A stretch of DNA of 64,000 bases from an uncultured Candidatus Saccharibacteria bacterium (GCA_964654205.1 CAZZHR010000003.1:56839-120838), one strand, 5' to 3'. Positions 20,027-20,269 are shown, numbered from the stretch's first letter. The notes: generated from the letters alone by a model not told the origin. Program-made: numbers and translations.

Positions 20027-20136
20027 AGCGGTGGTATACCCCGTGAGATAGATTATCAGCATTTGCGATTCGAAATAAGATTTCGCGGTCCTTCGGTAAT
20101 GACATGGCGTCGACTGCGCGTATCTCATGGGGTATA
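20027..20136. repeat. Inverted pair of the 16-24 nt motif AGCGGTGGTATACCCCGTGAGATA ... TATCTCATGGGGTATA flanking ~70 nt
   Basis: Read directly from the sequence; the same motif pair occurs at 35098-35172, and a single copy at 4981-4996. Confidence 0.85.
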
Positions 20137-20269
20137 GTCCTGCGTGTGAATCCCGTTAGAGACTACGGAAGTCGCCGACCGATTATCATGCATTTGCGCG
20201 CGGATACGCACTGGGCCATTAGCAGCAATAGCAAGAGTACGGGAAGCATCGCTTCCTGTCTCTAATGGG

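Follow-up and report, generated by a model that had tools for sequence, protein, structure and literature searches.

The motif that recurs before several genes of the window (the whole stretch of 64 000 nucleotides analysed here) is, with a probability that we put at about 0.8 from sequence comparison, the end of a very small non-coding palindromic mobile family of Parcubacteria/Paceibacteria, which targets promoters and resembles MITEs and REP sequences. The tgt site is best explained by one type A and one type B insertion, located in the promoter and in the start codon, respectively. This insertion reading is based on terminal inverted repeats (TIRs), direct 4-bp duplications and empty sites in relatives. 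A type A element would consist of 12-bp TIRs around approximately 8, 35 or 72 nt and would be flanked by a 4-bp target duplication, almost always TATA; its surviving targets would be the -10-box TATA of leaderless extended -10 promoters of the form TGnTATAnT-N6-8-ATG. Together with the native 'nT', the downstream copy of TATA would again make up a full -10 box, as far from the start codon as before the insertion; the right repeat would become the promoter spacer and the interior would usually supply a -35-like TYGRA hexamer 17 bp upstream, and the gene is presumably still transcribed. The upstream copy, TATACC, would amount to a -10 box minus its last T and would be silent. A type B element would enter after the first base of the start codon, where its terminal G or A and the duplicated TG would give GTG or ATG. 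Movement would depend on an enzyme acting in trans.

Bacteria of the candidate phyla radiation are regarded as streamlined, with few mobile elements, and their gene regulation is almost unknown. A mobile family with identical 12-bp ends in approximately 60 assemblies (among the matches listed) of such supposedly element-poor bacteria would provide an example of an element that lives within essential signals, the -10 box and the start codon, by regenerating them. It would also serve as a sequence tag for the prediction of promoters and true start codons in Parcubacteria genomes, account for intergenic inverted repeats that can be mistaken for operators or terminators, and raise the question of melted promoter DNA as an insertion target.

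The window was searched for the 16-mer TATACCCCGTGAGATA or its reverse complement, allowing at most three mismatches. Seven matches were found where 0.20 were expected, a number reached in none of 100 shuffles, and the recurrence of the motif pointed out in the original prediction is thus real. Exact copies lie at 4981, 20035, 35106 and 35157, a copy with one mismatch at 20121 and a copy with two mismatches at 59169-59184. The last of these is absent from the original prediction, and an ATG follows its arm after 10 nt, comprising the nT that completes a -10 box and 8 nt more. A three-mismatch match within a gene (205-220) looks like chance. Before tgt, AGCGGTGGTATACCCCGTGAGATA at 20027-20050 is mirrored with one mismatch by TATCTCATGGGGTATA at 20121-20136 across a 70-nt gap; before ddl, AGCGGTGCTATACCCCGTGAGATA at 35098-35121 has a perfect mirror at 35157-35172 after 35 nt, the 16-bp arms being perfect, as had been described. 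A direct repeat of 17-18 nt, GATTATCA(G/TG)CATTTGCG, has two copies in the window and no others, at 20051-20067 and at 20181-20198. On re-checking, all of the coordinates previously given for the motif, mirrors and gaps were correct, as was the presence of the direct repeat, and Pfam bears out the gene names tyrS, tgt, ddl and pyrB.

Read as TATCTCACGGGGTATA and followed by nT, the motif yields a -10 hexamer TATACT, TATAAT or TATAGT, and every right arm in the window does so (TATAGT, TATAAT, TATACT and TATACT). The ATG follows the arm after 12 nt (4981), 8 nt (35157), 10 nt (59169) and 133 nt (20121), and lies 6-10 nt past the -10 hexamer at three of the four window sites. The motif had been taken to be 24 nt long. 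This sequence is repeated, but the unit is a 12-bp TIR (CCCCRTGAGATA / TATCTCAYGGGG) together with the 4-bp TATA duplication; the remaining 8 nt, AGCGGTGN, are native promoter flank and lie outside the repeat, since they are also present at the empty sites of relatives. A search of metagenomes with the 24-mer gave no match, which is consistent with AGCGGTG being local flank. The features are listed in Table 1.

Table 1. Predicted type A and type B elements of the window and the promoter and start-codon signals that adjoin them.
Feature	Position	Strand	Basis or remark
Native tgt promoter flank AGCGGTGG, remnant of extended -10 'TGn'	20027-20034	+	Outside the repeat; AGCGGTGC also stands before TATAGT in L244, where the site is empty
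TATA, left copy of target-site duplication, type A	20035-20038	.	Single TATA in relatives
Left TIR, type A, CCCCGTGAGATA	20039-20050	+	Motif matches
Interior of type A element 1, 70 nt	20051-20120	+	Holds direct-repeat copy 1 (20051-20067), CGAAAT/ATTTCG hairpin and -35-like TCGACT (20110-20115)
Right TIR, type A, TATCTCATGGGG, T at position 8	20121-20132	+	Motif matches
Restored -10 box TATAGT: right copy of TATA (20133-20136) and native GT	20133-20138	+	Empty site TGcTATAGT in four relatives
TGAA, left copy of target-site duplication, type B	20147-20150	.	Uninterrupted in L244: ...CTTTGTGAAAAGGCC
Left TIR, type B, TCCCGTTAGAGA	20151-20162	+	Comparison with relatives; type B set
Interior, type B, 96 nt, with direct-repeat copy 2 (20181-20198)	20163-20258	+	
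Right TIR, type B, TCTCTAATGGGA	20259-20270	+	Pairs with 20150-20163 in predicted 5' UTR fold
TGAA, right copy of target-site duplication, type B	20271-20274	.	ATG 20270-20272 is the last base of the element, A (20270), and TG
Type A element, ddl promoter	35106-35172	+	Empty site agcggTGcTATAATttgcccATG or near variants in four relatives
Old type A element upstream of membrane-protein/pyrB operon	4892-4998	+	Orthologous element in L097 with both ends intact
Old type A element upstream of gene at 59195	59082-59186	+	Motif match and search for decayed partner

The tyrS-tgt region was taken from four relatives (L244-L247; Tgt identity 91, 87, 85 and 84%). All four have the element-free sequence TGcTATAGT-N7-9-(A/G)TGAAR, which in L244 reads ...AGCGGTGCTATAGTCCTGCTTTGTGAAAAGGCC..., and the window has the sequence of the relatives with two insertions flanked by TATA/TATA and TGAA/TGAA, in the order AGCGGTGG-TATA-(CCCCGTGAGATA-70 nt-TATCTCATGGGG)-TATA-GTCCTGCGTG-TGAA-(TCCCGTTAGAGA-96 nt-TCTCTAATGGGA)-TGAA-AAGGCC. 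The old GTG start codon, kept in L244 and now ATG in the window, began with the G at 20146, immediately before TGAA. The predicted tgt promoter consists of TCGACT, a 17-nt spacer and TATAGT, with a predicted transcription start near 20145, and the predicted 5' UTR is the type B element, whose two ends would form a stem of 14 bp that closes at the AUG. The homologues of Tgt are 405-410 amino acids in length and the (A/G)TGAAR start is conserved in relatives, which together indicate that the true start is probably at 20270, in a codon rebuilt by the type B element; the public Tgt record P0001 (389 amino acids) begins at the second ATG, at 20318, 16 codons too late. The direct repeat is most simply read as interior sequence common to the type A and type B elements. 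No interiors similar to that of type A element 1 were found elsewhere, and the search for donor copies of the two young insertions of the window returned nothing beyond a 23-nt match in L203, where window positions 20087-20109, within the type A interior, match 1765-1787 at 22 of 23 nt in coding-looking sequence; this may be chance or a captured fragment. An ORF for a basic peptide of 49 amino acids (MKGGGFDKRNNKPHFDKPQSR..., 19866-20015, + strand) lies between tyrS and tgt; it occupies the same place in L244-L247, is annotated as a gene in two of these four and has no Pfam match.

The ddl region was likewise taken from four relatives (Ddl identity 88-75%), all of which have element-free TGcTATAAT-N6-ATG in an intergenic gap of 16-25 nt (...AGCGGTGCTATAATTTGCCCATGACACGC... 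in L248), so that the tgt and ddl sites both differ in presence and absence at orthologous positions and are empty in four relatives each. The order in the window is AGCGGTGC-TATA-(CCCCGTGAGATA-35 nt-TATCTCACGGGG)-TATA-ATTTACTCATG, with the TATA copies at 35106-35109 and 35169-35172, the TIRs at 35110-35121 and 35157-35168 and the interior at 35122-35156, and the restored -10 box TATAAT (35169-35174) precedes the ATG at 35181. The -35 hexamer of this promoter copy is weak, none being convincing. Across the family, the silent arm mostly follows the G of an old TGn, only the downstream copy is followed by 'nT' and the ATG stands at its native distance, presumably because the insertion split an old promoter. 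The original prediction had offered MITE- or BIME-like repeats co-opted as promoters as one of its readings. The TIRs, duplications and empty sites speak for repeats of this kind, with the difference that the -10 box pre-existed and is restored by the duplicated TATA.

The same sites bear on the proposal that the elements are ancestral and were removed from the relatives through exact deletions, with the 4-bp repeats as end points. Precise deletion of palindromes between short direct repeats by replication slippage is known, and unique interiors suit old elements better than recent copies. We consider this highly improbable, as all four tgt and all four ddl relatives are empty, in different assemblies and at graded distances, which would demand repeated independent precise losses; in addition, gain and loss alike imply a mobile or excisable element with target-site duplications.

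Under the insertion reading the elements would differ in age: L097 also has the copy at 4981, which in the window has lost an intact outer end. This copy had been described as a single right arm. The right arm is there (TIR 4981-4992, intact), but it has a decayed left partner at 4892-4907 (10/16) across a 73-nt interior, and is followed by TATA in the -10 box TATACT (4993-4998) and by the ATG at 5009. The element before the gene at 59195 has a similar build, with a decayed left end TACGTTCAGTGACATA (59082-59097, 10/16, preceded by TGa), a 71-nt interior, a right TIR TATCCCACAGGG (59169-59180) and a -10 box TATACT (59181-59186). The proteins downstream of the 4981 element and of its counterpart in L097 are 83% identical and the interiors about half identical; the outer end is intact in L097, and the promoter-side repeat with 20 nt downstream is identical at 33 of 33 positions. 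The tgt and ddl insertions are missing from the closest relative, and by this comparison the 4981 element would be the older. The promoter-side repeat appears to be under purifying selection once the element is immobile, which suggests a role in promoter function or binding by a host factor. The 33/33 identity of this immobilised copy counts against the view of the repeat as a passive spacer and points to a function at the level of the host.

A genome-wide search had been called for in the original prediction, and a scan of genomes, one per species, gave at least 116 loci. Among the 116 genome matches listed, 110 are from Patescibacteria (Kaiserbacteria, Nomurabacteria, Campbellbacteria, 'Paceibacterota' and unnamed Parcubacteria), in approximately 60 assemblies by our own count; those listed from other bacteria are unpaired singles, except for the match in L079 (labelled Pirellulales), where a second copy lies inverted at a distance of 6 nt. 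Viral contigs gave seven matches, all of them unpaired singles and at or below the number estimated for chance. A second, independent sample was drawn from metagenomes and seeded with the position-8 T variant. The genome sample holds 251 motif copies among the matches listed, only 36 of which are without a partner, and many apparent singles, including both of those in the window, have a decayed partner at the canonical distance. Inverted ('tail-to-tail') pairs number 102 in the genome sample (matches listed) and 78 in the metagenome sample; the 12-bp ends are present as TIRs in these 180 pairs, and the gaps fall into the same three classes, 6-15, 33-39 and 61-80 nt (approximately 8, 35 and 72), in both samples.

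The original prediction had wished to see the positions relative to genes tabulated. In 86 of 102 pairs of the first sample and 66 of 77 of the second, nT stands after one arm and not after the other. Past the nT-flanked ends an ORF led by ATG begins 8-10 nt from the motif in 64 of 95 cases, and 41 of 54 copies without the following T have no ORF within 60 nt (both among the matches listed). The silent arm usually adjoins the end of an upstream co-directional gene, the stop codon of which lies at most 23 nt from the outer arm in 55 of 103 cases, and in 117 of 150 pairs a G, as in an extended -10 box, is found two positions ahead of the upstream TATA. Where the flanks are not palindromic, nine pairs have identical direct 4-mers and none inverted ones, which identifies the outer four bases as a duplication and not as part of the inverted repeat. 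Head-to-head neighbours overlap by exactly TATA (12/12), as would result if one element had entered a TATA that its neighbour had already duplicated. Two or three type A elements with common TATA junctions make up arrays at L018 806-1100, L048 2867-3072 and L096 2049-2270, with further arrays at L083 5892-6020, L060 5860-6060 and L115 3633-3760.

Within a genome as well as between genomes, the interiors are unique, with one genome (L018/L048/L096) and the tandem case L083 as exceptions. In that genome, CAYPGH01, three contigs carry an identical interior of 73 nt, and recent copying is clearly indicated nowhere else. No hidden third copies beyond chance were found inside the long interiors, which fold no better than shuffles (mean z about +0.2). 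Unique interiors and the lack of a donor copy are unusual for a copy-and-paste MITE family and count against the mobile-element reading, as do the three sharp classes of gap length, the failure to find an autonomous copy in the 1.7 Mb sampled, the 33/33 identity of the immobilised promoter-side repeat and the ddl copy without a convincing -35 hexamer. Over the whole family, a -35-like TYGRA is enriched at a spacing of 17 bp beside promoter-side arms (T 0.72, G 0.76, A 0.68). Repeat position 8 is C or T: a T arm is paired with a C arm in 75 of 76 cases, C/C pairs are common, and T is approximately twice as frequent on the silent arm.

The covariation analysis that had been suggested gave no evidence for selected pairing of the arms: consensus deviations occur in a single arm 68 times and in both arms three times, at most one change is compensatory, and pairing ends at the 16-mer. 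The absence of any sign of selection on base pairing supports the mobile reading. It also bears on the view that the inverted pair acts as RNA, either as a terminator or stabiliser of the upstream transcript or as a 5' leader controlling the downstream gene. The proximity of the upstream stop codon in 55 of the 103 cases means that read-through RNA would hold the hairpin, stable folds are predicted (z = -3.0 and -6.9), and the type B element makes up the whole predicted tgt 5' UTR with its 14-bp stem closing on AUG. A U tract is absent, however, the 35-72-nt loops have no structure of their own, and the two arms, in the combination seen most often, would face each other with an A-C mismatch in sense RNA (31 versus 9); compensatory changes are lacking, the stem is not extended past the repeat, Rfam holds no match, and transcription of the downstream gene is predicted to start beyond both type A arms. 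A role as RNA is thus very unlikely as the general explanation. The structured 5' RNA of the original prediction fails for type A, which lies upstream of the predicted transcription start, and holds for type B only, which forms the predicted tgt 5' UTR. Rfam (gathering score and E up to 10) and tRNA scans gave nothing at the motif sites, and no terminator-like sites were found at the tgt and ddl pairs. A terminator-promoter cassette was also considered and was rejected in view of the missing U tract, the sense mismatch in the commonest combination and the unstructured interiors.

The 98 downstream proteins fall into 78 unrelated families with roles in replication, the cell wall, translation and repair, among them DNA polymerase III, murC, ddl, ribosomal proteins, uvrC, recG and rpoD, and therefore do not form a coherent regulon. 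The rpoD homologue of one Nomurabacteria genome (L075 484-1790, - strand) has an exact type A arm in front of it and dnaG immediately upstream. The same gene may have an element in one genome and none in another, and the interior class differs between close orthologues (15 nt in L092 and 35 nt in L101, 89% protein identity). These data weigh on the alternative that the 16-mer is a protein-binding site, either as an operator through which a global regulator acts or as a promoter element for RNA polymerase or an accessory factor, with the upstream copy auxiliary and the sites lost from relatives. Several observations suit such a site: sequence is kept rather than pairing, the spacing falls into sharp classes, a position-8 T arm is nearly always opposite a C arm (75 to 1), as if one strong site were needed, and the promoter-side repeat is identical in diverged genomes after the other end has decayed. 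Against this, the uninterrupted promoters of eight relatives and the direct target duplications denote insertion and not site loss, the 78 downstream families are unrelated, presence and absence vary gene by gene, the interior class shifts between L092 and L101, and the spacing classes (centre-to-centre distances of 24, 51 and 88 bp) are off the DNA helical repeat. We regard a binding site as an unlikely origin, and the global-regulator operator of the original prediction is not upheld as an origin given the unrelated downstream families and the sites lacking in relatives. A regulator acting through DNA looping was given up for the same distances and the empty sites. A secondary host function of the promoter-side repeat may nevertheless exist alongside a mobile origin. 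Two further candidates were dismissed: a CRISPR array or mini-array, as most loci have a single 'spacer', gene starts are joined to half-repeats and spacers of 8 and 72 nt also occur (no cas genes were found in the window), and a DNA uptake sequence, as the motif is restricted to promoters.

The type B subfamily has the TIR YCCCGTTAGARA / TYTCTAACGGGR and duplications TGAA, TGAG, TGGG or CGAA. The left junction is (A/G)|TGRR in seven of eight elements, and at the right junction the last G or A and TGRR rebuild ATG or GTG, again in seven of eight, leading ORFs of 85-643 amino acids. By these junctions, type B is predicted to sit after the first base of the start codon and to rebuild that codon.

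Neither an autonomous copy nor a transposase with the family's ends on both sides was found in the 1.7 Mb sampled, which covers parts of each genome. The search for distant unpaired ends gave one 1-kb case holding only an ORF of 79 amino acids, the sequence of which looks GIY-YIG-like to us. In the window an ORF of 206 amino acids (16505-17125) matches Pfam Y1_Tnp with 27.6 bits and has the HUH motif HYH and the tyrosine motif SVYVNLN, in the manner of IS200-like or RAYT-like proteins; a PDB sequence search with this protein gave no match. The palindrome TTGGAGGTTSAACCTCCAA occurs before the ORF (16470), inside it and in frame (16929) and at its end (17115), over the region 16470-17133. Y1_Tnp homologues are present in L010 and L092 and likewise go with a different palindrome, the L010 gene being flanked by CAAGGTTAAACCTTG. 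The flanking palindromes of both the window and the L010 genes differ from the type A and type B repeats, and on this account the window Y1_Tnp gene was rejected as the mobiliser. A single-strand, hairpin-based mechanism is favoured by the minimum size of 32 bp, by the hairpin form of the elements and by a flanking tetranucleotide that covaries with the arm. With greater reserve, it can be speculated that the elements are aimed at promoters and do not merely survive there: an HUH/Y1-like enzyme might insert hairpin DNA into open promoter complexes, with ends evolved to rebuild the -10 box or start codon and an immobilised promoter-side repeat, better conserved than the coding sequence beside it, that has perhaps become a binding site and ties many housekeeping promoters to one factor. 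In leaderless promoters the duplicated bases are those at -12 to -9 (type A) and at +2 to +5 (type B), at either edge of the stretch that RNA polymerase melts, and single-strand-specific insertion would fit the hairpin form, the 32-nt minimum and the tetranucleotide that changes with the arm.

The family is apparently undescribed. It is set apart from described families by its size, by the targets it chooses and regenerates, and by having identical ends in many genera. The literature searched contained no paper with the motif and none joining MITE with Patescibacteria terms, and we know of no parent insertion sequence. The closest parallel among MITEs is provided by the Correia repeat-enclosed elements of Neisseria, which are also short and non-coding, have TIRs and an AT-rich target duplication, occur in discrete size classes near gene starts, influence promoters and form hairpins when transcribed. 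The present elements are much smaller (32-96 bp between duplications), their target is the -10-box TATA (4-bp duplication) or a start codon, their interiors are not conserved among copies, and their ends are identical in many genera rather than in a single one. They also depart from the definition of a MITE, as no internal sequence is common to the copies (except in one genome) and no insertion sequence with the same ends was found in the 1.7 Mb sampled.

REP/REPIN-RAYT and IS200/IS605 hairpin elements are alike in size, hairpin architecture and discrete spacing classes, in singletons that represent decayed doublets (REP/REPIN) and in the presence of Y1_Tnp genes in genomes carrying type A elements; the flank that tracks the arm, TATA with type A and TGAA with type B, recalls the guide-directed choice of cleavage site by IS608. 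Unlike in REP/REPIN, there is no GTAG-type head, the flanks are derived from the target, and the sites are promoters and start codons and not gene 3' ends. The hybrid promoters formed by IS1, IS2, IS257 and ISAba1 are comparable in that the element end supplies the upstream half and the target supplies the -10 box, whereas here insertion inside a resident -10 box would restore an existing promoter and would create none upstream of a silent gene. The piggyBac/IS1380 DDE group may offer a further parallel: it shares the 4-bp AT-rich palindromic duplication and the footprint-free empty sites, and piggyBac (CCCTAGAAAGATA, target TTAA) has similar 12-13-bp ends starting with CCC and ending with AGATA. 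The target here is TATA and not TTAA, such a transposase was not found in the sampled sequence, and a 32-bp double-stranded element could hardly join its ends for a DDE enzyme.

Most of the recognisable promoters of the window are leaderless and of the extended -10 type (TGnTATAAT/TATACT, 6-8 nt, ATG), with no Shine-Dalgarno sequence; examples are at 13335, 14487, 17550, 34601, 48121, 52979, 53505 and 60374 (+ strand) and at 45018 and 55824 (- strand). About a dozen of the form TGnTATAAT-N6-8-ATG are free of the motif, which thus marks a subset of promoters, and type A elements are found in roughly a quarter of the recognisable leaderless promoters (4/~16). Leaderless promoters with the '-10 box next to the ORF' have been described in Deinococcus-Thermus and Actinobacteria (PMC12340547, PMC4007540) and resemble the host promoters here in that the -10 hexamer lies 6-8 nt before the ATG and a Shine-Dalgarno sequence is absent, but these papers concern promoters and not mobile elements inside them.

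Some other genes of the window deserve mention. A protein of 340 amino acids (47010-48032, + strand) combines sigma-70 region 4 (amino acids 13-66) with a HARE-HTH domain (amino acids 222-278), and its L190 orthologue is 72% identical. The HARE-HTH domain is found in the RNA polymerase delta subunit of Firmicutes, and the protein could be a promoter-associated factor. A protein with ATP-cone and Mrr-type restriction endonuclease domains is encoded at 52139-52963 (+ strand). An ECF-type sigma factor (36986-37537, + strand) lies approximately 550 nt upstream of a DUF5667 protein (38090-39217, + strand), and in L248, L249 and L251 an RRM_1 gene is located between the genes for the ECF-type sigma factor and the DUF5667 protein.
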